Under the pieces are notes generated by a model. The model was not told the origin of the DNA. It worked only from the letters and a program-made list of their open reading frames with translations, and did no database searches. A stretch of 64,000 bases of DNA from NCBI GenBank assembly GCA_017499595.2, contig CM038999.1, forward strand, positions 3,844,001-3,908,000, read 5' to 3'. The DNA is from Psilocybe cubensis. Lineage: Eukaryota. A program made the translations under genes and the position numbers. This document shows, piece after piece, positions 1-63,119 of the stretch; the first letter of the stretch is position 1; every line of letters begins with the position of its first letter.

Positions 1-1027
1 GCTTCGCAAACGGTTTGAGATTAGTGGCAAGGATGAAGTTATCTCAAAGTCTATTGGTCTACACGAGGAAGCTTTGAAGCTGTGCCCTGAGCCTTACATC
101 GAACGTGATGATTGTTTTAGTGGACTGGCATCAGCGCTCGCTAGGCGATACATGAAATTCGGCGAGCAATCCGATCTCAAGGCAGCTCTCAACTCTTACC
201 TTTCCGCCCTCGACCTTCTTTCATCTTCTCATCCCAAACGAGCTACGTTATTGTTCGGATTGGCAACGACTATTCGTATATTTTTGGAGAATGCAAAGCA
301 AGAAGAGAAGCTGGAAGGAGTAATACCCTATTACCGCGAAGCGCTTGAGCTACTCCCTTTAACTCATGTCGACCGAGCTGACTCCCTATTTGGGCTTGCC
401 GTGGCTTTGAAGACCTTACACGTTCAACGCTCACTGAATCCTCATAAATTCCACACAGTAGCAAACAAGAGTGAAACGATTTTAGACGATATTTTACCAC
501 TGTACAGTGAACCAAACTCGTCGGGAATTATGTCAAAGAATTGGTTGGACTACCTTCCTATTCCCAATATCTTCGGTTCCACAAACTTGAAAGCACCGTC
601 GATGTCGAGCAGAGCATCCCAACCAAATATGCGGGAGCGCGCTCAGATTGATTCACCACGTGAAAAGCCGCGAAGATCCAGTCATCCTTCCCACGGTGAT
701 TCACCTACCAGACTCTTGAGCATGGCAAATATCCATGCTCCAAAGCATCGCTTGTCTGCATCGTCGTTACAGTCGGATGCTGTGTCAGCAATATCTATGA
801 CACACGGGCAATACGAAGAGCTTGATGAAGCAATTAACCTGCTCAAAGAATCATTGCAACTGCGTCCTCCTACTCATCCAGCTCGAATTGAATCCTTGAG
901 ATGCATAGTGGATGCCTACACGATACGATTTGGAGCTGTAGGCCATCCCGATGTGGATTCATATCGCAGGGAGTTGAATGCGCTTGAATATGGTTTTAAA
1001 CATCCTACCCCCTCGGAAGCAATTTGA
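1..1027 (+). CDS. 3' end of a TPR-repeat protein, paralog of the downstream DUF2235-TPR genes (5' part lies outside the window)
   Basis: The frame is open from base 2 (LRKRFEISGKDEVISKSIGLHEEALKLCPEPYIERDDCFSGLASA) and aligns with LRKRFEINRQYVDLARAIELHEEALTLCPEPYIERDNCFSGLASA of the next gene. Both share the terminal repeat LDEAIxLLKExLxLRPxxHPARxESL. Confidence 0.85.
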   Translation, partial: LRKRFEISGKDEVISKSIGLHEEALKLCPEPYIERDDCFSGLASALARRYMKFGEQSDLKAALNSYLSALDLLSSSHPKRATLLFGLATTIRIFLENAKQEEKLEGVIPYYREALELLPLTHVDRADSLFGLAVALKTLHVQRSLNPHKFHTVANKSETILDDILPLYSEPNSSGIMSKNWLDYLPIPNIFGSTNLKAPSMSSRASQPNMRERAQIDSPREKPRRSSHPSHGDSPTRLLSMANIHAPKHRLSASSLQSDAVSAISMTHGQYEELDEAINLLKESLQLRPPTHPARIESLRCIVDAYTIRFGAVGHPDVDSYRRELNALEYGFKHPTPSEAI

Positions 1028-2610
1028 ATGGTTCCTAATCATGCTCCATGAGCGGTGTGTACTATGTATACCATATGGTATAGCATTTCAGCTTGGTTCC
1101 ATTCATGTCACATTTCCATCTTCCAATGGCCTATCCGAACCGTATATTATTAAAAATTTAGCTTAATTTTATTAAACCCCGAAACGAGCCATACTGCGTA
1201 CTTTGCTAATGTTTTAACATCATGCACCGCTCTCAGAGCAAGCGTATGATAGATCATACCAAGTATGTAATTCACTTTAATCGATTGTTGAGTTTGTGTC
1301 AAGTATTTGTCGCAGCAACAACTTGTGCCTTTCTCTTTAAATCCAAGGGTCTTTTCAGTGAGGCTGAAGGGAAGTCATTGGGCGTATACTTGTCGACGTC
1401 CTGACTACTTGGACTACACAAGCGAACTCAAATCTTTTTCTCAAAACATAACGAAATCTTTGTTGACTTCGTTGTCAGAAAAATATGCTCGCCAGTCTAA
1501 TAGATCGTAGCTAATTTATACAACAGGTCTACAATTGCACAAATCCAAAGCAAGCGGAAGCCGTTCTGATTCCTGAAGATGTTGTTGATTCAGAGCCTCT
1601 GCCGAGACATGGCATCAGCGGAGAGTTCCAGGAGATCATTCTTGTATGCCTTATAGACACATTAAGTGTTTCCTATGTTTATTGAAACGATTTTGTATTA
1701 AGAATACTAAGATATGTAGTGAAAACATTTGACTTTGGAGAAAGAGTGATCAAGAGTTCAAGCTTTGTGCTTATCGGGATGTCAAACTACAATTTTTGCC
1801 GCCTCGGCATTGCCTTAAAGTTATTCCCGCTTAGTGGCGTAAACTAGCGTAACCTATGCGTAACGCTGTGACAACGAGTTTTCGCAGACGACGACAATCG
1901 ACGAGAGTGCCAGACGAGAGTATCTTCACCGTCATAATCAGGGTCCACGACATAATTGACACAAGATTAGCACTCCACACACAACGTCGTTTGTACAAGC
2001 TTACTTGGACTCAATACTGCTTTCATCGGCTCGACGCAGCATCAATGCGACATGCAGTCGTTGCATGTCCTAGGGTCAAACATGTTGTATTTCATGGTTG
2101 CGACAAACTCTACAGATGACTCGGAGGAACCAATCTAACGCTTAGGCGCTGGCAGGCGCTTGTCTTTCGATCTATCATGGCGTCTGGTCTTCATACTGCC
2201 ATGTTGAAACCATGAAGTTTCACTGCGCACCAGGAGGATCAACTCAATTATGGTGATCCCTGTGATCACGCGAATCTCTTTCAGGTGTCAAGGATCTGAG
2301 AAACCAACGCTGTTGATCCCCGATGCCTTCATATTACGCGTAGCGATTTCTTCTCAAGCTCTCTTGAAGGCTGGAGTGGGTAGGAGCATGTGTTGGACGA
2401 TGGTCAACTTTTGTATATCTCCGGTTGGGATACTTATCGTGGTTTGCCTTTGGGGTTCCTTCTCTCCTGAACAAGGTGTATATTTTTAACAAGGTCGAGA
2501 ACATACCCTCGTTCCAACCTCATGTTCCAAGCCATTAACTCGTATGCGCTGGATTTTTATGTCTTTCAGACAACTATGTATTCTCTTTATATTCTCTCTT
2601 CCTTTGCTCA

Positions 2611-5600
2611 ATGATGGATGCACAAATGGCCGATACCGAGAAAGGCACCCAAAGCACCATTGGGAGTGGTCCCACTTCACCGAGCATCACCATCGACAAC
2701 AGCGCAAGTTCGGAAAACGAAAGCCACCTTGAAAGTCACCATATCCCATGTTTTTGCGTCCCACTTTCCAACCAACGTTTTGGGAGAAATCTGGTCGTAA
2801 CCATTGACGGAACAGCCAACCAGTTTGGACTCAAGGTGAGCATCGTTACTTGTGTAGGTAAACGTTTACTCACCTTGGCAAAGAATACAAATATCGTCGA
2901 ATTATATAGTCGTTTGGTCAAAGACGAAGGCCAACTTACCTACTACAATAGTGGAATTGGGACATACGTCCCCGATTCGGCATCGTGGGCTTCGTTCAGT
3001 CAGTTCATATCCCATCAGTGGGACAAGGCCTTTGCGTCGTACGAAAACCAACTTATAGTATAACAACAACAACACTTATGTCTTTCTGGTGCTAGAAATT
3101 TCAAAACAAGGGTTCTCAAAGCATATGCATGGCTTTCCGAAAACTACAAACAAGGGGATCGAATATTTTTATTTGGTAGGGTGCATATTTCGATTTAATT
3201 ATTATCTCGTTATTGATTTAGTTCTAGGCTTCTCTCGCGGTGCCTATCAGGTCAGGGTTATTGCTGGAATGATAGAGAAGGTGATTCTATTATTTCCAGC
3301 AAAAGTGTCAGCTAATCTGCTTGACGTACGCTAGGTGGGCCTCCTCCACAAGGGTAACACGGAACAAATTCCATTGTGATTATAGTTCTATGTGCCATCT
3401 TGAATCATATTAACTCAAATTCCCCACAGTGCATATGATCTTTACATCGCAACCTTGAAAAGGAAAATGCCGGGAGCACCTACAACGTCTATTTCAACTG
3501 AGCGACCTTATGAAAAGAGCGCGGCCAAAGGAAGACCAAAGGAGACTCCCGAGCACTTGTGCAGGCAATTTAAGAAGTCGCTTTCAAATGATAAAGTTGT
3601 TGTTCACTTTGTCGGCTCATGGTAAAATATGTTCTCTGACCGCTTCAAAGTGTAATCTCAACATTGCAACAGGGACACTGTGTCGTCAGTTGGCGCTTTG
3701 CGTTCCGAATGTTTACCAGAAACAACAACCGGGATGGAGCACGTCTGCGCCTTCCGTCATGCGCTTGCTCTTGACGAGTTGAGAGTGAAGTTTCTACCTG
3801 AATATGCAAACGGCGGTGCGGGTCCGCCAGATCGAGACTCCGAACCTGTCCAAAATGAGGCAAAGGAAACTGTTGTCCAACATGCTGAAAGGTCTACTAT
3901 GACAAAACGAGGCAACATAAAAGAAGTCTGGTTTGCTGGGTCCCATTCAGATGTGTAAGTACTGTTAAAACATAATCATTATTGTTTTTTTTTTGACAAT
4001 TTCTCAAAAGTGGTGGCGGAAATGATGACAATCCGGAGAACGACCAGTTTGGCCCTTCTTTGCGCTGGATGACATATGAAGCGATATTATGGGGGCTGCG
4101 TATGAAGCCCTTCCACAAGGAATGGGTGCCTCCAAAATCTCGATCATCGATGACCTTGGTGTGGACCATACTCGAAGGGCTTCCAATATCGCATCTTTCC
4201 TACAGAGACGCTAGCAGCGTGACACGACGGTAAAAATACGCCAATTTGGAAACATTATTTGAATAACTGATATTTTTTTGAATAAAACCAGGCCCCATTT
4301 GAAAAGCCCTCGTCTTATACAACCCGGGCAACTAATCCATGCGTCAGTTTTCGAATTGATGCACCAAGAGCCCGGGTATCGTCCCAAAGCTCAATTCTCA
4401 GACAAAACGAAGTGGGATTCAGCTTTATCAACCTACCTGGAAAGTACCCGTGATACGAAGACTTTGAAGGCCAATAATATCGAAAATGATCCCTATATCC
4501 AGCCAAGCAAAATATTGGACACCATTGCGAAGCGACGGCATAAAGTTAAAACCGCGGATTATGATCAACTTCTGAAGCTATCATTTACCGGTATGTTTGA
4601 CTTTTGCTGAAGTGCGACCAATGTTTGACTGCCAGAAATGATTTCGTAGACATTGGCTTAATGTCAATTCAAGAAACTTACAATGCAGAGCATATATTGG
4701 CTCGTGCTCTTGCAGACGAGTCGAAAGAAGAACCAGTATCGGAAGCAACATTCCGCCGCATTGCAACCATAGCGAAGATAATGGACAGATGTTTCGATAT
4801 CATTCCCGCCGAATTCCTTGAAAATTATTCGGAGCCGCCTGCATCAGCTTGGGAAATTCTCAATCAACTTTATCCCGAACACTCAAGTTCGAGATCCAAA
4901 TTTCTTCATCGGTTTGGTAAGAGTTACATCAACATATTAATTGGCCCTCACCTGATATTCTAATACAGCCAATAGAGACGCTCGGTTGAAACAAGTCGAG
5001 GAAGAGGTTGATACATACAGCCGTGCCTTGCAAGGCAAACCTCAACCAGCCAGACATGTCCGTCTGGAATATATCAAAAAACTAGTGGTGGGATTGCTGG
5101 ACTCCCTTGTACTGGCCAACCAACAGCCTACTAAACTTTCTGAGCACCTCCACACTTGTTTGCCCACCTACAAGCAGGCTCTTCGGTTTCTTGAACTGTC
5201 GTATTCCGATCGATCCGCTCTCATCAAAACTCTCGCCAAAGAGATTGATAGCAATTTTGCCTGTGGTGGAGAAGGTTTTCTAGACGAGCGGATAGCATTG
5301 TTCAAAAGCTCTTTTGAACTCATACCCACCGACAGTGCCAACCAAGAAGATCATCTACAGGACCTGTTGCCTGCTTTATATCAGCGATTTGAGGAAACTT
5401 CTCAGCATGAAGACATTGACGAAATTCTCTCGTACAATTCGGAGATCCAGGGTCTCCTTTCTGCATGGCAGCCCCATCCCGTCGCGAGTAATCTGGCAGC
5501 TACCTTGGCGTCTTCTTGTATGGTTCGATTCAAATTGACTAGTGAATTTCACTATATCGACGAAGCTCTTTCACATCTTCAAGGGAGCATACTCAACTGT

Positions 5601-7049
5601 CCTGCATCTGACCCCAATCGTGCGGACCTTTACGTCATACAGGGCGATTGGTGTCATCTTCGCTTCAAGGAAACTGGCCAGGTATCATACTTAGATCAAG
5701 CAGATCAGTCATATCATCGTGCTATTAGCATTCGCCGTGTTTATGAACAAAAGGATTCTTATCCAAAAACCAAAGAAGCAGCCATTCTTTGCGATCGCTT
5801 CAAGTTGACACGGCAAAGAAGTTTCCTCGACAATGCAATCAATTTCCATCGAAGCTCTTTGCCTCTCATTTCCACGCGGCCACACGAGCTAGCTTCAGCA
5901 TCCTTTGACTTTGCAGATGCACTTCTTACCCTCTTTGTTGAAACAGGCGAATTCTGCCACTTGAATGAGGCAATTGAACACTACGAAAGTGCCCTGATAT
6001 TCAATAAGAAACCTCGGTTCTCGAGGGCGAAATGTCTGAACGGACTAGGTGTTGCGCTTCGGAAACGGTTCGAGATCAATCGACAGTATGTTGACCTTGC
6101 CAGGGCCATTGAATTGCACGAAGAAGCTCTAACTCTGTGCCCTGAGCCATATATTGAACGGGATAATTGCTTCAGCGGGCTTGCATCAGCCTTTGCTACT
6201 CGTTACTCAAGTTCAAATCAAAGATCTGATTACAACAAAGCTGTCGAACAGTATCACAACGCACTATTGCTTCTTCCACCTTCACACCCTAGCAGAACAG
6301 TTTCTCTTGTTGGGTTAGCAACAATCCTCCAAAAACCCTACGAAACGACAAATCAACGAAACGTACTACAGCAAGCCACAACACTATTTCGAGATGCGCT
6401 TTTGTTGCTACCATCACATCACGTTGAACGAGCTGACGCATTGTTCGGACTTGCTGCCGTCCTAAGAAGCCAATTTGATTTGTGCTTCCAGGAATCTCTC
6501 CAAAATAATCCCAGAAATAGTACGAAACGCCATGATACCATTGATGATTCACCACCATCCTACACCGAACAACTCATGAATTCCTTTTCGTTTCAAGTGG
6601 CACTACAACACTATCGCGCTCCGTTAACACATAGAGGTCATGTCTTCAACACTGTTGGCCTTGCAAGCTCGTTCCAGAGTCTTAAGCTTAAAACTGCACC
6701 GTTATCCAAGGCCACTACTCTCGAGTCTTCACACTCCATTGACACACCGACTTCAAGCACCCCTCTGGCACTGGATAATCCATCACCAACTGGTACAATC
6801 AATGGCGCCGATGCGAATTATCAATCCATAACCGCAGACGCCTCTTTCGCTTTTCTTGATGAAGCAATAAAATTGCTCAAAGAAACTCTACCCCTGCGCC
6901 CTTTCCCTCATCCTGCTCGAGTCGAGTCTCTGAGTTTACTGGTGGATATCTTGGAGAGGAGATCAGGGAATACGGACCAAGCTGAACTGCTCGCATATCG
7001 GCATGAACTAGCCAACCTGAGGAAATCTGGAGAGTCAAGTGGTCTATAA
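2611..7049 (+). CDS. DUF2235 (T6SS Tle1-like alpha/beta-hydrolase) fused to a C-terminal TPR array; multi-exon
   Basis: Spliced motifs RNLVVTIDGTANQFG, TNIVELY, YYNSGIGTY, GFSRGAYQVR (nucleophile elbow), WDTVSSVG, FRHALALDELRVKF and EVWFAGSHSDVGGG. The last exon (about 4969-7049) encodes ~42-aa TPR-like repeats. Confidence 0.9.
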
Positions 7050-9280
7050 TCTTACTCAGTGAGATATGAAATTAACAAAGACTGGTAATTTACATGGTAG
7101 ATTTTGTGTATTTAATAATTATTACAGGAGCTTCGTACTTAATAAATGACATTTGTTAAGCGCCGAAACTTTGACGTTATGACTGTTAGCATTATCGACA
7201 TAGGTGAGATTTTACAGACCTTGTGGTCTGACATGTAAAACTTGTGCCTTGGCGTAGATACCATACTACTTTATAGGTCATGTAAACGATGTGGGGAGTT
7301 GAAGGGACTAACGTTTTCTGAGGTATACGCCGGAGCGTTTCTCTGTGGACTCCGGTGTTAATGTAGAGTGGACAGAGACACGGGAGAGTACACCCACAGC
7401 ATGGAAGTGCAATCTCCGCGATGCAGCCTCGTGTACTAATTATTTATTTTCAGAGTTTCCAGTGATATACCTTACTCACCTGTCGAACGCCTCCCGTGAT
7501 CTAACACAGAGCAAGTCGTCAATGTCTTCTATTCCAATTGAACTATTTTGGGTAGCCGAAGAAGGATACGACTGTCTCTCCTCGGTACATAAGTACGAGT
7601 GTGAGGCTGTATGAATGAGGGACCGAGACTCGAGTCGATCTAAGAAGATTACAGAATTAATTTCCGAAATCCATTTGATGTAATCTCAAATCCTGCATTA
7701 GTCCGACTGGCCTGCGTGGATCTTGACAGAGCGTTTGAGTATACATTACTACCCCGTGTAAGGGCATAGATCGAGATTCATGCTCCAGATATTATCTATA
7801 TTAATATTTGTCAATTGAATGTGGACGGACAGGAGCACTGGCGTCCTGGGGTAGCCTCGATGTCATACTGGCCACAATTCAACAAGATTAAGAACTTGAA
7901 TTTTGATTATAACGACTCACTTACCATCTTGTGCTGCATGTAGATACGTACTGATACAGAAATCCGACTGGTCCAAATCTCATGACTAGCCTCCACTGAC
8001 TAGCCTCTACTGCTCGTCGTCATGTACGGCAGGGCAGGCAACAGGTAAGACTAGTAGCCAGAGCTGCTGGTCGTCTTGACAGTAGAGGAAGGGAAAAGGG
8101 ATAGATGATCGGCCTATGAGGCTGCTCAATGGCGTGTATGGAGCCGCGGGGCAAGAATAAAAGGTATGGCCTGCTCGTCATCGGTCCTGAGTCAACAACG
8201 GACATACAATCATCAATGGCCAGTATACTTGCCTTAAAACCAGAAATGGAGTTCCGCACCGTTATTTGGACAGAGGTGTGGGACGAGCAGGGCATGACTT
8301 CTACTTGTTGTTGACATGAAATACGGGGTTCTTCATTGGTGCAAAAGGCGGGAAAAAAAGTTGGGACGGGAAGCTTCTTGGCTGCTGGGAGAGTGTGTGC
8401 GAGACGCCTTGTCGTTAGGTTGTATGACGGGGTCGGCGCGCAAGACGACCAGAGCGACTGCTTCTCGTCTTTGTGAACAGAGGGATGGGGTCGTGGCAGG
8501 CAGCGTCCCTCGGAGCGGTGCCGAGCCCCGCTTGAATTTCGAACGGCAATCACCGCGCGGTCGCCAACGGACCAAAAACAAGCAGCAGAAACGCAGTACT
8601 TGACACATATCACTGAGACTTCAACCACTGAAAACGAATGCGCCAGGCTACAAGTTGCAACAGAGTTTCCCAACAAATCAACAATATGTTATCGGCAAGC
8701 TTAGCTAGGTTCTCTGGAATGGCAACACTGGCAACCTGACGCAGGACTTCAGCAAATAACACGAGGAACGTCAATCGAGCTTGAAATATCGCCTAGCGTA
8801 CGCGTATCCACTAATCTGAGGGATCGGCAAGAATATAATTTCTCTTCTTCTTACAATCACTTTGGTTGCACATTCCTGCGTGGGTATTACGAGGTGGTAC
8901 CCCCGTCTCCTGTTTTTACCGGTTCTACGACCAGTTGAAAATCTCCAAAAGTGCGTCCTTCACACTATCCCATCTCTGCAGAAAAAATTAACTGATGTTC
9001 GGCTCCCAGCTCAATTTCTGCCTTGCATTCAATGTCGGTTCAATGCTTCTCCCAACGGTTATTCAATATCGGTTTCAAGTCAATCAATAAAAATAGAACT
9101 GCCATGCAGCATTTTGCCAATGTCCGGGTGAGGCAGAAAGCATGCAATAACCCTCGCCGCAAACTCGTGGATAATGTCGTCAAACAACATCAAATCTCGA
9201 TTCTTCTCTTTTGAATGTATCTAAAAGTTGCTGGATAGTCCGGGTCTGTAGGACAAGGACCATATTGCGACCTCTTTCGA

Positions 9281-12200
9281 ATGACGCCCTCAATCGACAG
9301 CGACGAGACTCAGATACAACCTACTGAAAATGCCCCGATATCATGCCTATGCAGCCCGCCTCCCAACGGTGGGGTTGGGAGGAACCTCATAGTGTCCATT
9401 GATGGTACCGCAAATCAGTTTGGCATGAAGGTATATCTATTCTTCTGCCAACTTAAAGTCTATCTCTGTAGCTCATATATGCAATTTGTTTCAAGAATAC
9501 CAACATCGTCGAGCTCTACAGTCGACTAGTAAGGGATGAGACGCAACTCACATACTACAACAGCGGCATTGGTACCTATGTGGTTGATTCTAAATCGTGG
9601 CTGTCCTTAAAAGCCTGGAATCAGTCCATTTCTCATAACTGGGACAAAGCCTTTGCCACGTTCGTATGTTTGTTCTTAGACAATAATTATTTAATCGTCT
9701 GGGCTATTCTAGCAACTTCAAATCAAAAGTCCTCGACGCATACGAATGGCTATCTGAGAACTACAGGCCGGGAGATAAAATCTTTTTATTTGGTACGCGT
9801 ATCCATGCATTTGAACAGAAAAGAGAATTACACTGATACTTGATGGCAGGTTTCTCTCGTGGCGCCTACCAAGTCCGAGTTATTGCAGGTATGATCGAGA
9901 AGGTCAATAGCTCGCTTGTCATATTTTTATATTTCTGCTAATATGTCAACGTCTCGCAGGTGGGGCTTATTCATAAAGGCAACAAGCAGCAAATTCCATT
10001 GTGATTGCTCCTTCATTCATTTACGTGACTCGCTAACTTACTCTGCAAATTTTCAGTGCTTATGACCTTTACACCGCAACTCTGTCCAAACGTAAACGCC
10101 AAGAAGTCTCTGAAGAAACTCCCCTCGGCACTTCAAAGCAGCCAAAAGAACCAAAGAGTTTGAATGTCGTCAATGCGGAACATGATCCACGGTCATCGCC
10201 TTACCTTCACGTAAACCGCCTAGATGAAGACATAGACCAGAACATCGAAAGCGGACGTCGATCCAGAGCCACCACCAATACTGATAAAGACAAAGTCTTA
10301 TCCGGTGAAAACATTGAAAGTAGCGCAGACGACGGTCCAGAGGCTTTATGTCAGCACTTCAAGAGGTCTCTGTCCAACAACAAAGTTCGTGTCCATTTCG
10401 TTGGTGCTTGGTAATGACCTTCATTTTCCTCCATGTATATATTGTACTGACCATTGTGTACTAGGGACACCGTGTCATCAGTTGGCATTTTGAGAGGAGA
10501 ATGTCTCCCAGAAACGACCTCTGGAATGACACACGTATGCGCGTTCCGACATGCACTCGCTCTCGATGAATTGAGAGTGAAGTTTCTGCCCGAGTATGCC
10601 AACGGCGGGTCGGGTCCTCTGATGAACGACTTTCAACAACCTGATCCACTCCTTTTGCCTTCTTGGGAACTCTTCGGTCTCAAGATTGCAGGCCTTGTAT
10701 TTGCACGACCACATGCAAGAGTCAATCCAACCACAGATACCCAAAGGGCAAAGGGTGGCAATGTCAAAGAGGTGTGGTTTGCCGGTTCACATTCTGATAT
10801 GTAAGTACGTTCCCATCTTCGTCTTTCTTGATTTTCATATCTTATTCTTTTCTAGTGGAGGGGGAAACGTGAAAAATCTAAAACTCAATCAATTCGGCCC
10901 TTCTCTTCGATGGATGACATACGAAGCTCTTACTTGGGGCCTCAAAATGAACCCATTCGACCAGAAATGGGCACCGCTCTCTCCGAAATCATCTATGAAC
11001 TGGAAGTGGAATATTCTTGAAAACCTTCCCATTCTACGGCTTTCTTATCAGAACTCTAATGCCGTTACACGAAGGTAAATATCGTTCTTCGCAGTGTACC
11101 TTTTACAAACTCAATGTGATTCCACACCATTACAGACCTCATCGTCAAAGCCCGCGTTTGATTTTACCGGGCCAATTAATCCACGAATCCGTCTATGAAC
11201 TCATTAAATCGACTTCTAACGCTCAGCCACCGTCAAAGCCATACCTTCCGATGGCCTTACTTCCAGGTGGCAAAAAGTGGGCATCGGGTCAGGCACCAGA
11301 AGACAATATCATCGAGAAAGACCCATACCTCCAACCTGATCGCATCTTGGAAGCGATCAAGGAGAAGCGACACACCCCGGCAGATTTTGATGTCCTACTC
11401 ACTTTGTCATCGACTGGTGAGCATCATTTTTTACGATACCTGAACAACGTATTAAAATACATGATAGCGATCGGCCAAAGGTCTATCCGAGAGCGCCCTG
11501 AAGCTGAAGAAACTTTGGCCTCTGTTCTTGCGTCTCAAACTTCCAATGACAAGGACGAAAAGGACATAATACATACGATATCAAGAATTTTAGATCGGTG
11601 CTTCAATATGATTCCTGTGGAATTCATCTCGGAAAGCAAAAATCCATATTCACTCCAGTCATCGGTCTGGGAAACGTTGGACAAGCTATACCCAGAGGGA
11701 TCATCTAGTCGGTCTAAGTTTCTACATCGCTTTGGTAAATATTTTGACTTTTAATGTAATGTTTTCCGTTCTAATTAACAAAACTGTAGCCAACCAATCA
11801 ACCAGACTGGCCATAGTCAAACAAACCATTAGTTTACATATGGCGGCTTTAGAGGCCAGTCCTCAACCACCAAGGCATATTCAAATCGCATCCATCAAGG
11901 AATTGGTCCTCAGCTTTCTAAACCTACTCGTCCTTACGATACCGGATGGCGCCGAAGCATCCCACAGGCAATGGCTATACAGCCTGTACAAAGAAGGTCT
12001 TCGATTCGACAATATATCGTATAAGAAGCGATTTTCTCTTATCGAATGCCTGGCAGGCGAGATTCAGGACCGATTTGAAATGGGTCAAGACAACTATCTT
12101 AACGAGAGAGTGTTGCTATTCAAACGTATCTTCGACCTCAGACCTCCGGATCAGGGCAGGCAGGAGGATTACCTTCTTGGTTTGCTTCCTACGTTGTATC

Positions 12201-13810
12201 AACGTTTTGAAGCAACGTCCAGGCTGGAAGACATCGATGAGATTGTATCGTTCAACCCAGATATTCTTCGACTCCTCTCCGATCCAGACCATTATCCTGC
12301 AGTTGGTACCCTGGTTGCCGTTCTAGCGTTATCTTATCTTGCATTGTTCAAAACCACAGGCGACCTACATCACATCGACGAGGCAGCTATGCTCCTCAAG
12401 GAAAGTATATCCAATTGTGGTCACACAGATTCGAATTTGCCGTATCTTCTTGATCTGCATGGATATTCTTTCCATCTTCGATTCCAACAAACTGGTCATC
12501 ACATTTATCTCGACAAAGCAGACAATGCCTATCGTAGTGCTCTCGAAATACGCCATACATTGGAACCTCAAGGAACTTATCCTTCTATTGAGTTGGCAGC
12601 GGTACTATGCGACCGATATAAACTTTCTCGGCACCAGAAATTTCTAGACGATGCCATTCAGTATTGCCGTGACTCTCTTGCACTCTGTTCCTCGCGTCCC
12701 AGACAACGCGATGGACCCGCCTTTATTTTAGCAGAAGCATTGATGGCTCGCTATAAAGTTTTAGGAAAACCTCAAGATCTGGAAGATGCAATTTCATTGT
12801 ATCAGGAAGCTCTTGATCTCAATCCACCGCCTTATTTTCGCAGGGCTATATGCCTCAATGCGCTGGGTGGTGCCCTCACCGCACGTTTCCATTTAAAACA
12901 GCAACAAAAGGATGTCGAGAGGGCGGTTGTATTGCATCGCGAGGCTCTGGCACAATGTCTTTCTCGCTACTTCAAACGAGATAGCTGTCTTAGCGGACTG
13001 GCAGCTGCGTTGACGGGCCATTTCATAATTTCTGGCGAGAAGTCTGATTTAGAGGAAGCAATTTCTCATTATCAAAATGCCCTAGACCTTCTCCCGTCCC
13101 ACCATTTTATGCGGTCAGAATACCTCTTCGGTTTGGCGAATACCCATTTCTCTCTGTTCAAGGCGACAAAGCAAACTGATAGGCTCAATGAGGCGATCAC
13201 ACTCTATAGGGGTGCACTAAAGGATCTTCCTCCTTCGCATATTGACCGAGCAGACCTCCTCTATGATCTTGCAATTGCTCTGCAAAATTACGACGGTGTA
13301 TATCTTTCGGCAACTCATAGTGATTCAACGCATAAGGCTCAAAGAGGAAGATCTTCAATTTACGGTGATGAAGTCATTTTATTGCTCAAAGAATCGCTTC
13401 AACTCCGCCGTTTGTCTCATCATGGACGTGCCAATACTCTTAGACATCTGATTTCAGCTCTTTTATCAAAGTCCGGGGGAAAGAATATCAGAGAGATACT
13501 CTCGTATTGGGACGAGCTGACGATTCGTCACCCTCTCCTCTTCCCAACCTCACATCTTGAACGTCGAGAGCTTGATATGCTGATTTCGTTGCTCAAACTT
13601 GACCTCGAGAAATCTCCTGCACACCATGAACGACTGAAACTTCTCCGGTCTCTCTGGTGTGCGTTCCTCTTTCGATTTGGGAAAAGCAGCTCCCAAGAAG
13701 ACCTCGTTGAGGCATTCATGTATCATAAGGAGCTGATTCGCCTACAGCCCCCCATGGTCCCACTCATCCCGGACCCAATCTCAGCCAACATTATTCCAAA
13801 TCTTCTTTGA
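9281..13810 (+). CDS. Second complete DUF2235 alpha/beta-hydrolase-TPR gene; multi-exon
   Basis: Same motifs (IDGTANQFG, GFSRGAYQVR, WDTVSSVG, HALALDELRVKF, WFAGSHSD) and matching intron positions as 2611-7049. Large terminal TPR exon at about 11790-13810. Confidence 0.9.
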
Positions 13811-14107
13811 CTTCAGGTAAAAGAACTTCCTGGCCCGCACAGAATGGACTGATAGTTGTCAATGATTTTTTCTTGTAATTTATTTGTGCTCATATACATA
13901 ATTTATTGCAATCAATGGCCAACATTGGCTATCGAGTGTGAGGCCCATTATTTTAGTAACCCATTATTGTAAGCGTTTGCCGAGAGCAACAATGATTTCA
14001 AACGGGCACAATGTAAATTCAGAGATGGTTAAGACAGGATGGTTGCACACATGATGATAATGCTACTTGAGATGACTTATGCAAAAGAGAAAAAAGAAAG
14101 ATCCATC

Positions 14108-42857: not shown

Positions 42858-45280
42858 TCAAGAGATTCTTTTCTGGACGATGGGAATGAGGACAGAACAC
42901 CAAGCGTCTGATTTATTGGGGTCGGTGTACGGTAAGCTTGTTTCGGTGTCGCGAAGTATCTTGAAAGGGGACGACTGAGCGATCGGCGATAGGTCAATTG
43001 GTGAAGTCGAGAAAAAGAATTTTAAAAACCCGACGTCAACGTCGTGGCCATCAGGAATGAAGTATTCGATGGGATTTGCACCGCCATTCCCAAAACCTAT
43101 ATTGATCTGACCACCCTCTTTAGGTAGAGGTGAATCCGCCAGGAAGTGGTTTTCTGTAGTGGTCGAATAGTATGATTCTGAATGACAGAGTCACATCAGA
43201 AAATATAGATGCGCGAAACAAATAGGGCTTCCTCACCAATACTGAGCTCACTGTTATCAAAGTAAAATATGTTTGGGTACAAGTTTGTGCCGCTGTAATT
43301 AGTAACCCTGATCCCATACAAGTTTTCGACGGCGTCATCAATCTCAAGGGTGATTATGCCATCCTTGATAAGATTTTCACCCATCGGCATCCATCCTAAT
43401 GCACCGTCCTCGTCATGCTGCCATGACGGTTGCAGTTTAAAGAACTCGAATCGAAGAGATTTGCGCAGGTTGTCACTGGTAAGGTAAGATCGATTCAGAT
43501 GATAGTAGTACGTCGCTGCGCCCTGAAGTATTCGGCATAGGCTGGCAGGATCTGAATTGGCTGTGTGGATGCATCGTGTGAGGCCGTGGGCGGTGACTCG
43601 CTCATCAAGGTGGTAAAAGGCGATGTCATCCCCTTGCCGTCTGGCCTCTATGTCTGCGATTAATTTGTCCGCCAGGCTAAATCTAATTTGGTGGCCAGCA
43701 AGGGGCTCACGGGTCTGCACTAGGGAGGCTTCGTTGAAGATCTGTAGCAGAGCTTCTTCGGGAACATGGACTCTGAGCTGTTCCTGGACGCCTGATTTGC
43801 TTTGAACCGCAATTGGTGACTGTCCTAGGGCACGTGTTGGGTTTATGGGTTGTGATAATGTCGACTGAAATGGTCCGACATCAAGGACGGTGGAAACACC
43901 ACAAGGTTCTTGATTACTGAGCGCCTTAGCATCCGCGTACAGGGTGAACTCTGCTTTTGGCGAGACCCCATGCGCGGCACCTGCACGGAGAACGTACTGT
44001 GCATTGGGATTGAGATCAACTTTGAACACGTTCCTGGTTGGGGATAGGACTTTCCCGTTGAACAGTATGCGGTGTCTGTTGACACCTTCAAGCTGAGGGT
44101 TCTGGCTAATGGAAAAAAATCAGGATCATAGAAGACACGCCCAAAAGTTATCACTTACAAAACGAGCTGCTCCAGACGATCCATGAGATCGACGTAGCTG
44201 ATTTCAGAGATCGGGACGGAGTTGAGAACTTTGAGAAGTGCTCTCGTGAATTGACCTCGGCCATTAATCTCGATAGCACGTTCCGACGCGCTGCACGCAG
44301 CGAGAAAGACATGAGACGCAAGGCTTCCGGAGACATGCTGGACCGCAGCTCGTTGTTGATGCATGTCAATAATATCATCATCGAGGCCAGCGGGCAATGC
44401 ATAGTTTTTTAACATTGCACTTCTCACTGACACAGGTGAATCCAAACTTCGCGTCCCAGAGCCGGCATTACAGCAATCAAAGATCACAGTCTGGGAAATA
44501 GATTAGAGAAGAATAGGGAGTATTGAATAACCTCTTACAATATTATCGCCTTTCTCGATCATGATGTTGCGGAGGAGACGTCCGATTGTCCTGTCCGGAA
44601 TAACATGGACGTTCCCATTACTGGTAAAATCGCAAGGAACAATACTTTGCACGATGTTCCAACCATCCTCCGTTGGCCAATCATCTGGCACCTCGACCTC
44701 CTGTCCGTGGCCAGCATAGTATATCAGAATGGCGTCTCCTCTTCGTATATCGCGATTGGTCTGCAAAGCAACAAAGGCTTGTATGATGTTCTCCCGAGTA
44801 GCTTCGAGGTCGCTCAGCATACGGATGTTGCGGTCGTTAACCCCCAGCTTGTTCTTGAGGAATTTGCGGACTGCTTTTGCATCGCGCACCGAGCCACGTA
44901 GATCCTCAATTTGGGGATCTGAATATTGGTTTATACCAATGATGAAGGCAAATATCCGAGGTGAACTATGACTTTGTAAAAAATCGACTGGGACAGGGGT
45001 CGGACTTGACGTACTGATCAACTGATTCAACGGGACCCTCAACCTCGCTAGATGAGCTGCTAGACACAGTCCTTAACAAAGCTTCTGCCTACAGATGCCC
45101 TACTTTACGGACCTTGTCACAATGTTAGAGTCTCCATGTTTTCTAGGTTTTTTAAGATATGTTAGTTACGTCCCATCGAGCGTTAGTGCACACTCACAGT
45201 TTCATTTGGTCCTCGACTGACATGTCGTTTTTGTGAAATTTTGATGACAGCTTGGACGAGGTGCAGAAGGAAGAGAACAT
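42858..45280 (-). CDS. Caspase-like (peptidase C14, metacaspase-related) protein with a long C-terminal extension; start uncertain
   Basis: IFAFIIGINQY, LRGSVRDA, ATRENII, ILIYYAGHG (catalytic His), IFDCCNAGSGTR (catalytic Cys), SHVFLAACSASERAIE, GQFTRALL. C-terminal region YGIRVTN...LYPNIFYFD...DVGFLKFFFST. Confidence 0.9.
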
Positions 45281-55980: not shown

Positions 55981-58230
55981 ATGTCCGGCCTCAAAAACTC
56001 GCCGTTCGGTAAACGCCTGCGCGCATCTCACCGCGAGGTGCCCTCCGCCTCGGCATCCTCTTCCGGTTCTGCATCCTTCTCTTCCACCGCATCTGGATCA
56101 TCAAGTACCGCAGCTGCATCTGGCTCTGGCTTTGCTTCCGGGTCCGGGGATGCAGAGAGTACAAGTACAAGCACGCCACGTAAGGGAAAGGAGAGAGTGA
56201 ACGCCATCTTTGGGGGTGCTTCTGGGAGTAGTAGTACGCTTGGAGGGGCCGAGTCATCGCCGTTTGCGTTTGGTAGTGGGATGGGGAGTATGGGAATGGG
56301 GAGCATGGGCATGGGCAGAATTGTGAAAGAATACGGCGACCGCTTTGTCCCGTCGAAAGACTCTGGCGATATGAGGACGTCGTATCATTTGATGGAGGAA
56401 GGTGGAGGATCTGGAGGTGGGCCGTCCACGCCGTCGAAGAGTAGGATTATCCCAAGTGAGAGTGATGCACTCAAAGGTGTGTGTCTTGCGTTTCTTGAAT
56501 TTGTGTCCTGTTTTTGCTGACGATATGGTTGGTACGTGGTGTGTTGCGGAGCAGAGCAAGCGAATGCCATTTTCAACTCGATATTGCACACGGAAGTTAC
56601 CCCTCCATCACCACAGCGCAGCGGGCGCGGGGGCAGCGGGAGCGGCTCACCCACGCGCCCACCCATCGCATCTGGATCCACACTCCCCTCTACACCGACC
56701 CGCGCGAAACGCCGGCTCTTCGCCTATAGCTCACCATCGACTACACCCACGCGGCGCCTTGACACGCCGACGGACGAAGCGTACTCACTGTCACCTGTGC
56801 GCGCGGAGAGCCAGCGGTTATTGCTCAGCCCGCGCAGGCAGCTTCGGAGTGTATGCAAGACGCCGTACCGCGTGCTCGACGCCCCCGAGCTCGCAGACGA
56901 CTTTTATCTCAATCTGGTGGACTGGTCGAGGACGAATGTGTTGGGTGTCGGACTCGGCGCGTGTGTGTATCTGTGGACGGCGCAGACGGCTAGCGTGGCG
57001 AAGCTGTGTGATCTCACACCGGCGAACGACACCGTCTCGTCCGTTGCATGGGTGCAACGCGGGAGTACGCTAGCAGTCGGCACTCTCGCAGGGCGTGTAC
57101 ACATCTACGACGCGGCAACGCTGCAGCTCCAACGCACCTACCCCGCAGCACACGCACAGCGGGTCGGTGCGCTAGCGTGGAACGCACATGTGTTGAGCTC
57201 GGGGAGTCGCGATCGGATGGTACATCATCGCGATGTGCGCGAGCCAGGGCAAAGGCCTCAGCGACGGGGAGCGGGACATCGGCAGGAAGTGTGTGGGTTG
57301 AAATGGAGTGGAGATGGGAGTGCGGGGGTTAATGCTCCTGGTGTGTATTTGGCCAGTGGGGGGAATGATAATAAGGTGTGTATATGGGATTTGAGGGGGA
57401 GTGGGAGGAGGGGCACGGGTGGGAGAGGTGCTGCTGCTGGGACTACTGCTATGGCGAGTGGGACTGGGACTGGGAGGGCGGGGGGTATTGGAGGTGGAGT
57501 TGGTGGAGGTATTTTGAGTACGGGTGCGAGTTCGAGTATTGCTGGGCCGTCCACTACGCCTGGAGCAACGACGACGGCGGGAGGTGGAGGAGGAGCGGGG
57601 GCTGGGGCAGGAGACGAGACGACGCCGGCGGACGTGCCACTGTGGAAATTCCATGAACATACGGCAGCTGTGAAAGCGCTCGCGTGGGATCCACATGTGT
57701 CGGGTGTGCTTGCAACCGGTGGGGGTACGCAGGATAAGCACATTAGGTTTTGGAATGTGGGTACGGGTACGATGTTGAAGGAGTTGGATACGGGCAGTCA
57801 GGTGCGTTACATATTAACTGGCAAGAAACATATAACACTCACCTCGTTTTCTCTACATATCCACCAGGTCTGCAACCTCATCTGGTCGCTCACCTCACAC
57901 GAGCTCGTCTCAACGCACGGCTTCTCATCCACCACTGCCCAAAACCAAATATGCATTTGGAAGTACCCGTCGCTTTCGATGGTCGCGTCACTCACGGGCC
58001 ATACGAACCGGGTGCTGTACCTTGCGATGAGCCCGGATGGGGAGACGATTGTGACGGGTGCTGGGGACGAGACGTTGAGGTTCTGGAATGCGTTTCCGAG
58101 GGTTGATGGTGGTGGGGGTGGTGCGAGTGGGAGTGGGGGACATGGACTTGGAAGTGGTGGTGATGGGTGGGGTAGGGGCCGTAGAGAGAGGGAGGAGAGT
58201 CGGTTGGATTATGGACGTTTGATTCGGTGA
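55981..58230 (+). CDS. CDH1: APC/C activator CDH1/Fzr/Srw1 (WD40); 3 exons
   Basis: C-box-like DRFVPS, KTPYRVLDAPELADDFYLNLVDWS, GHRQEVCGLKWS, LASGGNDNKV, HTAAVKALAW, GDETLRFWNAF and a C-terminal IR tail. Confidence 0.93.
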
Positions 58231-60496: not shown

Positions 60497-61199
60497 TTTG
60501 CTCAACTCGCTCATTCTTTCTTTCCTTTTTTATATTTGCTCCTTCCTTATTTGTAGTCGGACCATTGGATCCGGTAGCCCCTGTTCATCTGCTGAGTCTA
60601 GCAGTTTTTTTTCTTCAGCGTACAGCGCATCACTTTCTTTATATTTCTCATCAACCTCCGTAGCTATTCTTTCCTTACATATACTGGCTCGTCTCATTCT
60701 CGGTACCTCAGCCCTTGTTTCCTTTCAGCTGAGGTAAATTCAGTTTGTTGTTGTTCATAGGAATTAGCTGACATAGTTCGTAGACTCATCGTATTCAGTT
60801 TCCTTCAATTTTCATCTGGACCGTAGGAGTTGGCACAGTCCATGATGCAGGCCTTATGGATGCACACAAACATTCCTACGTCATTCCTGAGCTCGTGGCT
60901 CCAAACTTGAAAACTTTATCCATCAATGCACCGCTGGATAGGAAATTCTCCTCGACGTGGCCGGACTTTTGAACTTGATGAGACAAAGACTGAAAACAGA
61001 ATCTTTACGGCAATTATTAGTAAGTAACTAAGACCGTAGCGAGGTATTCCCGGGGATCCCCGCTCCTCTCCGTTAAACTACGCCATTGACAAGTACGGTA
61101 TTTAATTCAAACTTTTCTTTGTTTCTCTAAAGCATTGGTGTTGCTATACGGTCATTGACTCTATTTGGCAGAATTCACAAATCCACAGCAGAAGGATCC

Positions 61200-63119
61200 A
61201 TGCAAACGATAGACCAGCTTTTGACTAGCAATGATGAACCCTCCGAGGAGCAAGTCCACGAAGTGCGACGACTGTTGATGGACCCTAAACAAGAGGCTGA
61301 ATACCTTGATGCGGAGATCCAAAAAGCAAGAAGTCTCCTCCAGGAACTGGAAGAGAAACGAACAAAGGCCGGGGGAACCATTCGACGCTATGAAGCCATC
61401 TTGTCTCCAATCCGTCGTGTTCCTCCAGATGTTCTTCGCGTTGTGTTCCTTTACTGTCTCGTAACCCATCGGAACCCTGCAATATCAATAAAGGAGGCAC
61501 CTCTGCTTTTGACTCACGTATGCAGCTCGTGGAGGACCCTCGCTCTGAACACACCAGCTCTGTGGGCCCGGATACATATCTCGTTCACGAATCAGGACCT
61601 GTTGCCAGAGATTTTGGAAAAAGAGGGACAGTTCGAGGGTGGTGCTTGTGCAGTTCCTCAAATTCCAAGATATAGGATAACTGAGATACTGCGGATCCGC
61701 TGCGAGGCAGTGGAAGAATGGCTTCGCCGGTCAGCGGGGTGTTCCTTGGCGTTTTCCCTCCACTACACACAGAATAGTGTGTACTCACATATATATGTGA
61801 TTAATCACACCTCGTTCCACCCTGAAGAATCTAGTTTATCGAGAAGGTTGTTCAAGGCGCTTTCTGATGTATCAAGCCGCTGGCAGCACGTCCGATTGAC
61901 AATGTCTAATGACGCATATTGCGCATTTGTGGAGTCCTGGGGATCCTCGTATCTCGCTAATAATCTAGTCTCATTCAGGATACTTATTTCCCAAGAGTTT
62001 GGACAGCAGGGCGCTCTCTGGGAGATCTTCCCGGGGTTCAGCCTCGCAGCTCCAAATATGAAAATATTGTCTGCTCATACAAGCTGCGTCGGTCTGAGAA
62101 AACTTCTATCTCCGTGGCCAACTGCTCTTACTCACATATCAATCGACTCAGCAATATCTACGAAACAAGCGGCGTTTGTTCTTCAGAGATCTCCTCAGCT
62201 TGTACACGTCAAAATGTGTATAAATCCGCTAGAACATTACTCGGAAGGGATGTTGGAAACCATCCTGACCCAGGAAACATATCTTCCTGAACTTCGTACA
62301 TTCCTCATCAAGGACTTTTTATCCACCTCCCCATGCACTGAAGACTTTTACGACAAAATTATTGCTCCCAATCTTTCATATATTTCATTTTGGGCGCCAC
62401 GGCCGGCCCTTTATGTTGACACCCATGGTGGCGACCATAGTCGTCCGCTTACACCACTTCGGGGGCTCCTCCTGAAGTCCATTCACCTCAAAACACTGGT
62501 GCTCAGCGTGGACCGGTACACATGTGCAGAAATTTCCGAACTTCTGCGAAGCGCCACTACAGTCACGCACCTCGTTTATAGAGCTCCGAAGCTCATGTAT
62601 GATTCGGAATGGGGATGTCCGTCCAACTCGGCGCACGAAGCTTATTCATATCCTAAGTGGAAATTTACATCCGTATTTCTCTCTGACAGTGACAAGGAAT
62701 TGCTTCTGCTTCCAAACCTGGAGAAGATTGAGATTGACTCAGACGACAAAGTCCCTTATGTAACGGATCAAGAAATAATCCAGTTTGTAATCAACAGATT
62801 GGACCCCTCGCCTTCTAGTAATTTCTCAATACTCAAGGATGTAAAGATGAAATACTCCCAAAGAACAACCATGGATGTTATAAAACAGATTTCGGAGCAC
62901 GCGAGGGAGGTTGGTGTTCCCATGAACGATATAAAACTCGATTTAAAGGCCTATAGAACGAGGCGTGAAAACGCACCAGCGCCTACGAGCACAAACTTCG
63001 GACTGAAGGAACAATCCAAAGCATGGGATCAACGTTGCGTCGAAGAACAAGTCAGTAGTCAGTATTCTGAACATCTTCCTATGCTTCAGAGCTCCTGTCT
63101 CGCCCAAAGACTGATATAA
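61200..63119 (+). CDS. Agaricomycete F-box-like protein, single exon
   Basis: LLTSNDEPS coiled-coil lead-in, AILSPIRRVPPDVLRVVFLYCL, EAPLLLTHVCSSWRTLALNTPALWARIHI, EWLRRSAGCSL, LLLPNLEKIEI. Confidence 0.85.
   Translation: MQTIDQLLTSNDEPSEEQVHEVRRLLMDPKQEAEYLDAEIQKARSLLQELEEKRTKAGGTIRRYEAILSPIRRVPPDVLRVVFLYCLVTHRNPAISIKEAPLLLTHVCSSWRTLALNTPALWARIHISFTNQDLLPEILEKEGQFEGGACAVPQIPRYRITEILRIRCEAVEEWLRRSAGCSLAFSLHYTQNSVYSHIYVINHTSFHPEESSLSRRLFKALSDVSSRWQHVRLTMSNDAYCAFVESWGSSYLANNLVSFRILISQEFGQQGALWEIFPGFSLAAPNMKILSAHTSCVGLRKLLSPWPTALTHISIDSAISTKQAAFVLQRSPQLVHVKMCINPLEHYSEGMLETILTQETYLPELRTFLIKDFLSTSPCTEDFYDKIIAPNLSYISFWAPRPALYVDTHGGDHSRPLTPLRGLLLKSIHLKTLVLSVDRYTCAEISELLRSATTVTHLVYRAPKLMYDSEWGCPSNSAHEAYSYPKWKFTSVFLSDSDKELLLLPNLEKIEIDSDDKVPYVTDQEIIQFVINRLDPSPSSNFSILKDVKMKYSQRTTMDVIKQISEHAREVGVPMNDIKLDLKAYRTRRENAPAPTSTNFGLKEQSKAWDQRCVEEQVSSQYSEHLPMLQSSCLAQRLI

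Follow-up and report, generated by a model that had tools for sequence, protein, structure and literature searches.

Within a 64,000-nucleotide stretch of the Psilocybe cubensis genome (assembly GCA_017499595.2, contig CM038999.1, positions 3,844,001 to 3,908,000 of the forward strand; hereafter the window, with all coordinates counted from its first letter) lie two complete neighbouring genes, and the 3' end of a third, in which an N-terminal hydrolase is joined through a helical linker to a long region of tetratricopeptide repeats (TPR). Sequence motifs and structural models together identify the N-terminal part as a Tle1-like α/β serine hydrolase with an intact Ser-Asp-His set, place the repeats in a class that is otherwise attached to caspase-like CHAT proteases, and indicate that the nucleotide-binding switch which defines the NOD-like receptors (NLRs) is lacking. 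We tentatively read these proteins as TPR-gated, phospholipase-type effectors of Psilocybe that arose by exchange of a WD40 region for a TPR region, an interpretation to which we give a little less than even credence; an immune or cell-death role is plausible.

The window is typified by short GT..AG introns and a G+C content of ∼45%. An open reading frame (ORF) at 4956-7049 on the + strand corresponds at 100% identity to JR316_0002743 (P0001, 1288 aa), and a second, at 11612-13810 on the same strand, is part of JR316_0002744 (P0004, 1312 aa), annotated on the same contig as JR316_0002743. The DUF2235 family, PF09994 (T6SS_Tle1-like_cat; T6SS, type VI secretion system), is matched in 5 of the 13 stop-to-stop pieces of the + strand that were scanned (2539-3063, 3059-3334, 3656-3958, 9472-9843 and 10451-10804), while TPR families are matched in three long ORFs (2-1027, 4956-7049 and 11612-13810). 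Exact spliced mapping reproduces both annotated proteins with 11 exons per copy. Copy B (JR316_0002743, 2614..7049, +) extends over 2614-7046 and copy C (JR316_0002744, 9281..13810, +) over 9281-13807, a stop codon following directly in each case. In copy B exons 1-8 (2614..4229, +) encode an N-terminal tail and the Tle1-like α/β hydrolase (residues ∼54-430), exons 9-10 (4292..4916, +) the end of an extended hydrolase module and an all-helical linker (residues ∼415-596), and exon 11 (4969..7049, +) a TPR solenoid of ∼13 helix pairs with a disordered insert and a final TPR pair; the corresponding parts of copy C, likewise on the + strand, are hydrolase exons 1-8 at 9281-11074, linker exons at 11136-11707 and a TPR exon at 11790-13810. 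The last exon contains the entire TPR region (692 codons in B and 672 in C), and introns 1-9 of the two copies occupy identical alignment columns with identical phases.

An earlier note on this DNA, made from the letters alone, had described an array of at least three such fusion genes, two of them complete with hydrolase and a single-exon TPR region of ∼690 residues. Family matches and spliced mapping bear this out for B and C, with a helical linker between the two parts; for copy A, of which the window holds only the 3' end, the picture is less simple. The segment at 2..1027 (+) comprises the C-terminal 341 TPR codons of copy A and a stop codon, and belongs to an annotated model of 471 aa (P0163), whose last 341 residues are those of the window ORF 2-1024 and which aligns to P0001 residues 828-1279. 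The public annotation splits copy A into this model and an abutting one, JR316_0002741 (P0184, 667 aa), that aligns to P0001 residues 185-821 at 57% identity and contains the C-terminal part of the hydrolase, the linker and the first TPRs; WDTV and GSHSD motifs are present, the model beginning only beyond the GFSRG region. An overlap of five residues marks the junction of the two models, ∼390 bases before the window. On a DNA contig a look-alike of hydrolase exon 2 is found 3174 nucleotides upstream of window base 1, at the spacing seen in copy B, and contigs of the RNA-like kind described below cover 2-1230. The C-terminal part of copy A is 38% identical to that of B. Copy A is thus either a disrupted copy or a split annotation, and it may be broken.

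This stretch is present in four public runs (X1-X4), none of which is on record as RNA. Contigs from X3 and X4 continue through all of the introns and these runs are therefore DNA. Contigs from X1 and X2, which we call RNA-like, omit 3376-3429, 4230-4291, 4591-4649 and 4917-4968 in copy B and 11075-11135 in copy C, with GT..AG borders at every skip, and provide no cover in the spacer bins 1402-2335 and 8874-9340. The joints in copy B read 3375>3430, 4228>4291, 4589>4649 and 4915>4968 and occur in the RNA-like runs only. Copy B is tiled by two X2 contigs over 4078-4228/4291-4589/4649-4810 and ∼4810-4915/4968-5436, so that one spliced RNA carries exon 8, the last of the hydrolase, together with linker exons 9 and 10 and TPR exon 11. 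The genes are transcribed, and copy B is one spliced gene; the earlier note had allowed that transcripts might reveal hydrolase and TPR as separate genes, and in this copy the RNA-like contigs join the two. No single RNA-like contig spans the whole of copy B, its 5' exons being thinly covered by cover that is biased toward the 3' end; where the RNA-like runs give thin cover or none, for parts of the 5' exons of B and for C upstream of 10742, they have not been used as evidence. For copy C the joint 11072>11134 at the skip of 11075-11135 and cover of 10742-14000 come from one RNA-like run. Two details of the annotated models are affected. The acceptor used in the RNA-like contigs of copy B is at 4650 rather than at the annotated 4674, adding 8 residues to give a protein of 1296 aa, and the annotated last donor of copy C, at 11708, removes a segment, RSKFLHRF, that is conserved in all relatives. 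A GTAAAT donor at 11735 would retain this segment in frame, and the annotation of the last donor is probably in error.

The assignment of the hydrolase rests on family, motif and fold. PF09994 is matched by residues 58-363 of P0001 (E 2.4e-74, 250.7 bits) and by residues 34-414 of P0004 (E 6.8e-73, 245.9 bits), with a cut-off of 27 bits. The motifs GFSRG, WDTV and GSHSD, from which an intact putative Ser-Asp-His triad had been proposed, are located at residues 153, 248 and 337 of P0001 and 132, 281 and 388 of P0004, so that both complete copies retain them, and Ser155 of GFSRG, Asp249 of WDTV and His339 of GSHSD are each invariant in 40 of 40 aligned relatives. The D65-G66-T67 motif is likewise invariant in this alignment. 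In both copies intron 3, of phase 1, splits the Gly codon of GFSRG (B, 3176-3227, 52 bases; C, 9793-9849, 57 bases). A search of solved structures with the single sequence did not find the Tle1 chains; a profile of 8 relatives compared with solved Tle1-type chains gave marginal matches, E 0.009 for 9j3f and 0.67 for 4o5p, with DGT, GFSRGA, DTV and GxHSDxGGG colinear with both. An AlphaFold model of P0001 residues 1-718 was obtained with a mean predicted local distance difference test score (pLDDT) of 77.6 and a predicted template modelling score (pTM) of 0.78. Foldseek matched it at E <= 0.001 to six chains only, all of the DUF2235/Tle1 type (two chains of 4o5p, the related 4m0m, 6sjl, 6ski and 9j3f), and in VIA-align the Tle1-type chains superimpose on model residues 38-479 with Z scores of 14.6-17.6 over 245-266 residues at 21-23% identity, as compared to Z <= 11.2 for other α/β hydrolases. 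No hydrophobic signal-like or membrane-spanning stretch was seen in the protein, which is therefore predicted to be cytosolic. Lipase activity, membrane damage and gating by a ligand are properties that we infer.

Between hydrolase module and TPR lie ∼170 residues, all predicted to be helical, that match no Pfam family. A search with P0001 residues 1-600 returned 463 proteins of 708-2254 aa, the best 120 of which underlie the family statistics given here; conservation with this wider family extends to about residue 430, with residues 430-600 common to only nine relatives. The Walker A pattern G....GK[ST] is absent from both P0001 and P0004 and occurs in only 2 of the 120 listed family proteins, and at E <= 0.01 neither P0001 nor P0004 has a Pfam match to NACHT, NB-ARC, CHAT (PF12770), or any NTPase or other enzyme family. 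A local CHAT profile found no match in the DUF2235 proteins. From residue 484 to the C-terminus the models contain helices only, and a P-loop NTPase is not among the listed matches of the fold searches, which we do not take as proof of absence. Looked up in a protein atlas, the linker gave scores that are all <0.9 and serve as leads only, among them a bacterial Tle1 C-terminal family at 0.77. The arrangement put forward in the earlier note, an effector coupled to repeats with no NOD domain in between, is in accord with the missing Walker A motif and NTPase families and with the helices predicted after residue 484.

The model of the TPR exon (mean pLDDT 80.9) is all-helical and forms a regular superhelix, with a disordered insert at exon residues 520-618. 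Foldseek returned 198 matches at E <= 0.001, and all 50 of those listed are helical-repeat proteins, mostly TPR; the resemblance is to generic scaffolds such as OGT, SPY and subunits of the APC/C. The TPR-S family is matched at 36.7 bits in copy C (cut-off 27.6), and copy B scores 24.0 bits. Both by word-index search and by full HMMER scan, the nearest TPR relatives outside Psilocybe are CHAT proteins of Agaricomycetes (Galerina, Hydnomerulius, Mycena), of some Ascomycota and of Streptomyces. The HMMER scan with the TPR exon found 7361 proteins at E <= 0.001, and the best 150 of these were classed with local profiles: 103 contain CHAT, 4 are DUF2235 proteins (P0002, P0004, P0036, P0184), 5 are NACHT-like, one of which also has CHAT and is counted within the 103, a further 38 have neither CHAT, DUF2235 nor a NACHT-like domain, and one more has a Walker A pattern only. 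In these 38 and the Walker-A-only protein Pfam finds TPR families and no other common enzyme. The proposal that the repeats are of the TPR-CHAT type thus agrees with the closest relatives outside the family. The order of domains is reversed, with TPR followed by protease in the CHAT proteins and hydrolase followed by TPR here.

All of the named relatives among the best 120 come from what we take, going by genus, to be mushroom-forming fungi. Once P0135, which lacks the His pattern, is left out, 119 proteins remain, of which 102 have a C-terminus of the WD40 type, 5 have TPR and 12 have neither. The five TPR forms are all from Psilocybe: P0001, P0004 and P0036 (JR316_0002692) of P. cubensis, and P0002 and P0003 of P. 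cyanescens. According to precomputed Pfam lists the 12 consist of 4 proteins with weak WD40 matches, one caspase fusion (P0044), one S9 peptidase fusion, one HEAT protein and 5 with the hydrolase only. In P0061 (Stygiomarasmius) DUF2235 at 172-495 is followed by NACHT at 918-1098, so that a true NLR, too, has this hydrolase at its N-terminus. A maximum-likelihood tree of the hydrolase (119 rows, 406 columns), unrooted and built by a quick method that makes its support values less safe, groups the five TPR forms in one clade with a support of 90 in the SH-like approximate likelihood ratio test (SH-aLRT); its sister is the caspase fusion P0044 (99), and the whole group is nested among WD40 forms. 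Pleurotus djamor accounts for about 32 of the best 120 and Auriscalpium vulgare for about 14, and several of the proteins have adjacent locus tags. Within 42-residue windows the best internal repeat identity reaches at least 70% in 41 of the 102 WD40 forms and at least 85% in 9; among the TPR forms the value is 86% for P0036, a Psilocybe paralogue, and only 40% and 45% for copies B and C, respectively. The NACHT fusion and the lineage expansion of the hydrolase-repeat family fit an NLR-like logic, and by sequence the Psilocybe genes are a TPR variant of a large, apparently undescribed DUF2235-repeat family of Agaricomycetes. The window itself contains a caspase-family gene at 43196-45072 on the - strand (PF00656, E 1e-13), whose caspase part and C-terminal extension are 27-30% identical to the part of the P. 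cyanescens protein P0044 that follows DUF2235.

Comparison of copies B and C confirms that the hydrolase is conserved while the TPR region is the more divergent part, with amino-acid identities of 68% for the hydrolase (373 codons), 46% for the linker and 43% for the TPR region, and nonsynonymous divergences (dN) of 0.25, 0.46 and 0.52; the change in the TPR is ∼2 times that in the hydrolase. Synonymous sites are saturated (proportion differing, pS, 0.77-0.97), from which it follows that the B/C duplication is old and that per-domain dN/dS is not computable, leaving dN only. The earlier note had gone on to suggest an allorecognition family diversifying by tandem duplication, and on both counts the data point the other way. 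B and C are old duplicates, and DNA contigs from other strains differ from the window by just 9-31 letters over 5.1-6.6 kb (14 and 25 differences over 6587 bases, 31 over 5072 and 9 over 6260), which argues against allorecognition, as the alleles of het loci are deeply divergent. Among the 40 of 184 differences that are listed, 24 fall in the coding sequence of copy B, 22 of these in the TPR exon, with 15 changing the protein and 9 silent. In both DNA runs the assembly of the segment 6558-6701, in the C-terminal part of the TPR exon, forks into a pair of contigs of much the same depth, the first matching the window exactly and the second departing from it at 7 of 144 bases; six of the seven sites are listed, of which three are silent and three alter the encoded residue (S>P, H>R, H>Y). 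Such a pair is as expected for the two alleles of a dikaryon.

How do these genes compare with systems that are already known? Bacterial Tle1 proteins have phospholipase activity, and the T6SS effectors of this type (4o5p of P. aeruginosa, 6sjl and 6ski of enteroaggregative E. coli, and 9j3f, TleB) share with the Psilocybe proteins PF09994, colinear motifs and the catalytic fold. Unlike them, the Psilocybe protein is eukaryotic and intron-rich (10 spliceosomal introns), is predicted to be cytosolic and is fused to a linker and a ∼690-residue TPR superhelix; its genes come without a T6SS, VgrG adaptor or immunity gene, the flanks at 1028-2613 and 7050-9280 containing no long ORF and no spliced coding transcript that could provide T6SS delivery or cognate immunity. 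The DUF2235-WD40 proteins of Agaricomycetes, annotated and unstudied (CVT26_013291 of Gymnopilus dilepis and many in Pleurotus djamor and Auriscalpium vulgare), are alike in the hydrolase up to about residue 430 (35-56% identity) and in having no NOD, and are multi-copy, tandem-prone and expanded in a lineage-specific manner. They differ in ending in WD40 rather than TPR, and 9 of the 102 have near-identical internal repeats (at least 85%), not seen in copies B and C. TPR-CHAT proteins of fungi and actinobacteria, such as GALMADRAFT_1201610 of Galerina marginata, share TPR_10, TPR_12 and TPR-S (23-32% identity over 55-79% of the TPR exon), and many of them are also without a NOD; to this group belong the repeat-carrying proteases reported to control gasdermins in fungi, and published work regards its members as effectors coupled to sensors (PMC10197012); their effector is a caspase-like protease C-terminal to the TPR, whereas in Psilocybe it is an N-terminal lipase-type hydrolase and there is no CHAT. 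Finally, the fungal lipase-type NLRs (sesB-like or patatin, NACHT/NB-ARC, TPR/WD40/ANK) likewise combine an N-terminal lipid-directed enzyme with C-terminal superstructure-forming repeats, but have a central NOD that is missing here, and the Psilocybe effector is of the DUF2235 family.

From the literature several precedents emerge. Lipase-type effectors occur in fungal NLRs and the effectors of most Basidiomycota receptors are still unannotated (PMC4986451), with only ∼15% of Basidiomycota N-termini annotatable according to Dyrka et al. The definition of DUF2235 as a lipase-like toxin domain, for which the T6SS is the main route of delivery, goes back to Zhang et al. 2012 (PMC3482391), who also noted its transfer to fungi before the ascomycete/basidiomycete split; repeat fusions are not mentioned in the available portion of that paper. 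In a survey of fungal NLR effectors (PMC9815663) DUF2235 or Tle1 occurs 0 times in the main text. The proteases that control gasdermins mostly carry ANK, TPR or WD40 repeats, with NLRs only a subset (PMC10197012), and as described there they constitute a precedent for effector-repeat proteins without a NOD. DUF2235 is also among the domains up-regulated in Armillaria facing Trichoderma (PMC10269595). We found no paper on fungal DUF2235-repeat proteins; supplements lay outside the scope of this search, and the domain tables of NLR surveys in them could list DUF2235.

The reading that we favour is then as follows. The hydrolase would be a phospholipase-type effector, acting on the fungus's own membranes or on those of an invader, and the TPR superhelix its regulatory or sensor part, which would hold the enzyme inactive, or off membranes, pending the binding of a ligand or partner. 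Release or clustering would then activate it directly, without the ATP-driven oligomerisation of NLRs. As to origin, the family would have arisen in the Psilocybe lineage when a DUF2235-WD40 protein, of a kind widespread in Agaricomycetes, exchanged its WD40 sensor for TPRs of the TPR-CHAT type, the three neighbouring copies being old duplicates. A number of points weigh against such a gated effector. B and C are old and fairly stable, as evidenced by saturated synonymous sites and conserved introns, the TPR units within each are not kept alike (40-45% identity), and differences among strains are few; the 15:9 count of protein-changing and silent differences in copy B, drawn from a partial listing (40 of 184) and with RNA cover that is 3'-biased, is no test of selection. 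The designation of X1 and X2 as RNA is a tool's guess, for which the intron-skipping joints are the sole support, and since their transcripts come from runs of unknown condition expression may be constitutive. TPR domains also serve as ordinary scaffolds, and we know of no fungal member of the family with a known activity, toxicity, ligand or phenotype.

Several of these same points suit a more mundane explanation, in which the protein is a housekeeping or developmental lipase whose TPR scaffold places a lipid-remodelling enzyme on an organelle or complex, with no part in non-self recognition or death. Old, intact and intron-conserved copies are what would be anticipated in this case, as are counterparts in P. 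cyanescens (P0002, P0003), low strain variation, internal repeats that are not homogenised and a TPR model like OGT, SPY and APC/C subunits. This explanation has more difficulty with a hydrolase clade that swaps its C-terminal module among WD40, TPR, caspase and NACHT-WD40, with lineage-specific expansion to dozens of paralogues per species, and with repeats whose nearest relatives are those of CHAT proteases and not of housekeeping TPR proteins. A TPR fusion that, among the 119 relatives, is found only in Psilocybe would also be odd for a core function. We consider a scaffolded lipase rather unlikely, yet a serious competitor; were it correct the genes would make up an ordinary lineage-specific lipase family.

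Less probable still, though worth retaining, is that the protein executes without sensing, the TPR region being a docking or cleavage platform through which a separate receptor or protease (CHAT or NLR) recruits or releases the lipase. Homology of the repeats to those of CHAT proteases would be accounted for, as would the joining of the same hydrolase to a caspase domain in the sister protein P0044, and the disordered insert at TPR-exon residues 520-618 could be a site of cleavage or modification. Bacterial conflict systems pair caspase-superfamily genes with α/β-hydrolase genes (PMC7159879), a lead only in that the hydrolase families were not compared. Against this reading, no partner gene is evident beside the array, the sole transcript between B and C having no long ORF. 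That hydrolase and TPR are two neighbouring genes fused by annotation is most improbable, for even though copy A is annotated as two models and the 5' exons of B are thin in RNA cover, RNA-like contigs join exons 8-9, 9-10 and 10-11 of B at GT..AG borders with the frame kept, the 11-exon layout is repeated in C, full-length proteins exist in P. cyanescens and no stop codon or start context lies between the parts.

Other features of the window were recorded in passing. The transcript between B and C (7067-8870, - strand) is spliced, with RNA-like contigs skipping 7343-7479 (GTGAGT..CAG) and 7868-7924 (GTAAGT..CAG); no ORF in the spliced product exceeds 91 codons, an ORF at 8020-8688 has no Pfam match, and several indels distinguish the strains. 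The transcript could be non-coding or could derive from a gene in decay. Two single-exon ORFs on the + strand, 38592-40478 (628 codons) and 61131-63119 (662 codons), have no Pfam match and share the N-terminal motif ILSPIRR(L/V)PPE/D; their appearance is that of paralogues in a family specific to mushrooms. The G+C content rises to 0.59 at 56001-58000, as compared to ∼0.45 elsewhere, and a 569-codon ORF at 56521-58230 contains glycine- and alanine-rich runs.

Research on fungal immunity has focused on NLRs and, lately, on repeat-bearing proteases that open gasdermin pores. It is possible, if on the unlikely side, that mushroom fungi hold a large and undescribed class of NOD-less immune or death receptors in which a domesticated Tle1-like toxin domain is wired to exchangeable WD40 or TPR sensors, the Psilocybe form having borrowed the sensor of CHAT proteins. 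Were this so, a hydrolase derived from a bacterial weapon and numbering dozens of copies in each mushroom genome would bring to the known repertoire an effector arm directed at lipids, and the Psilocybe genes would be a clear case of sensor swapping between classes of effector, such that one set of cues could set off a lipase or a protease route to death. With one polypeptide, one catalytic serine and one removable sensor, these proteins would offer a simple system for the study of gating by repeats without a nucleotide switch.

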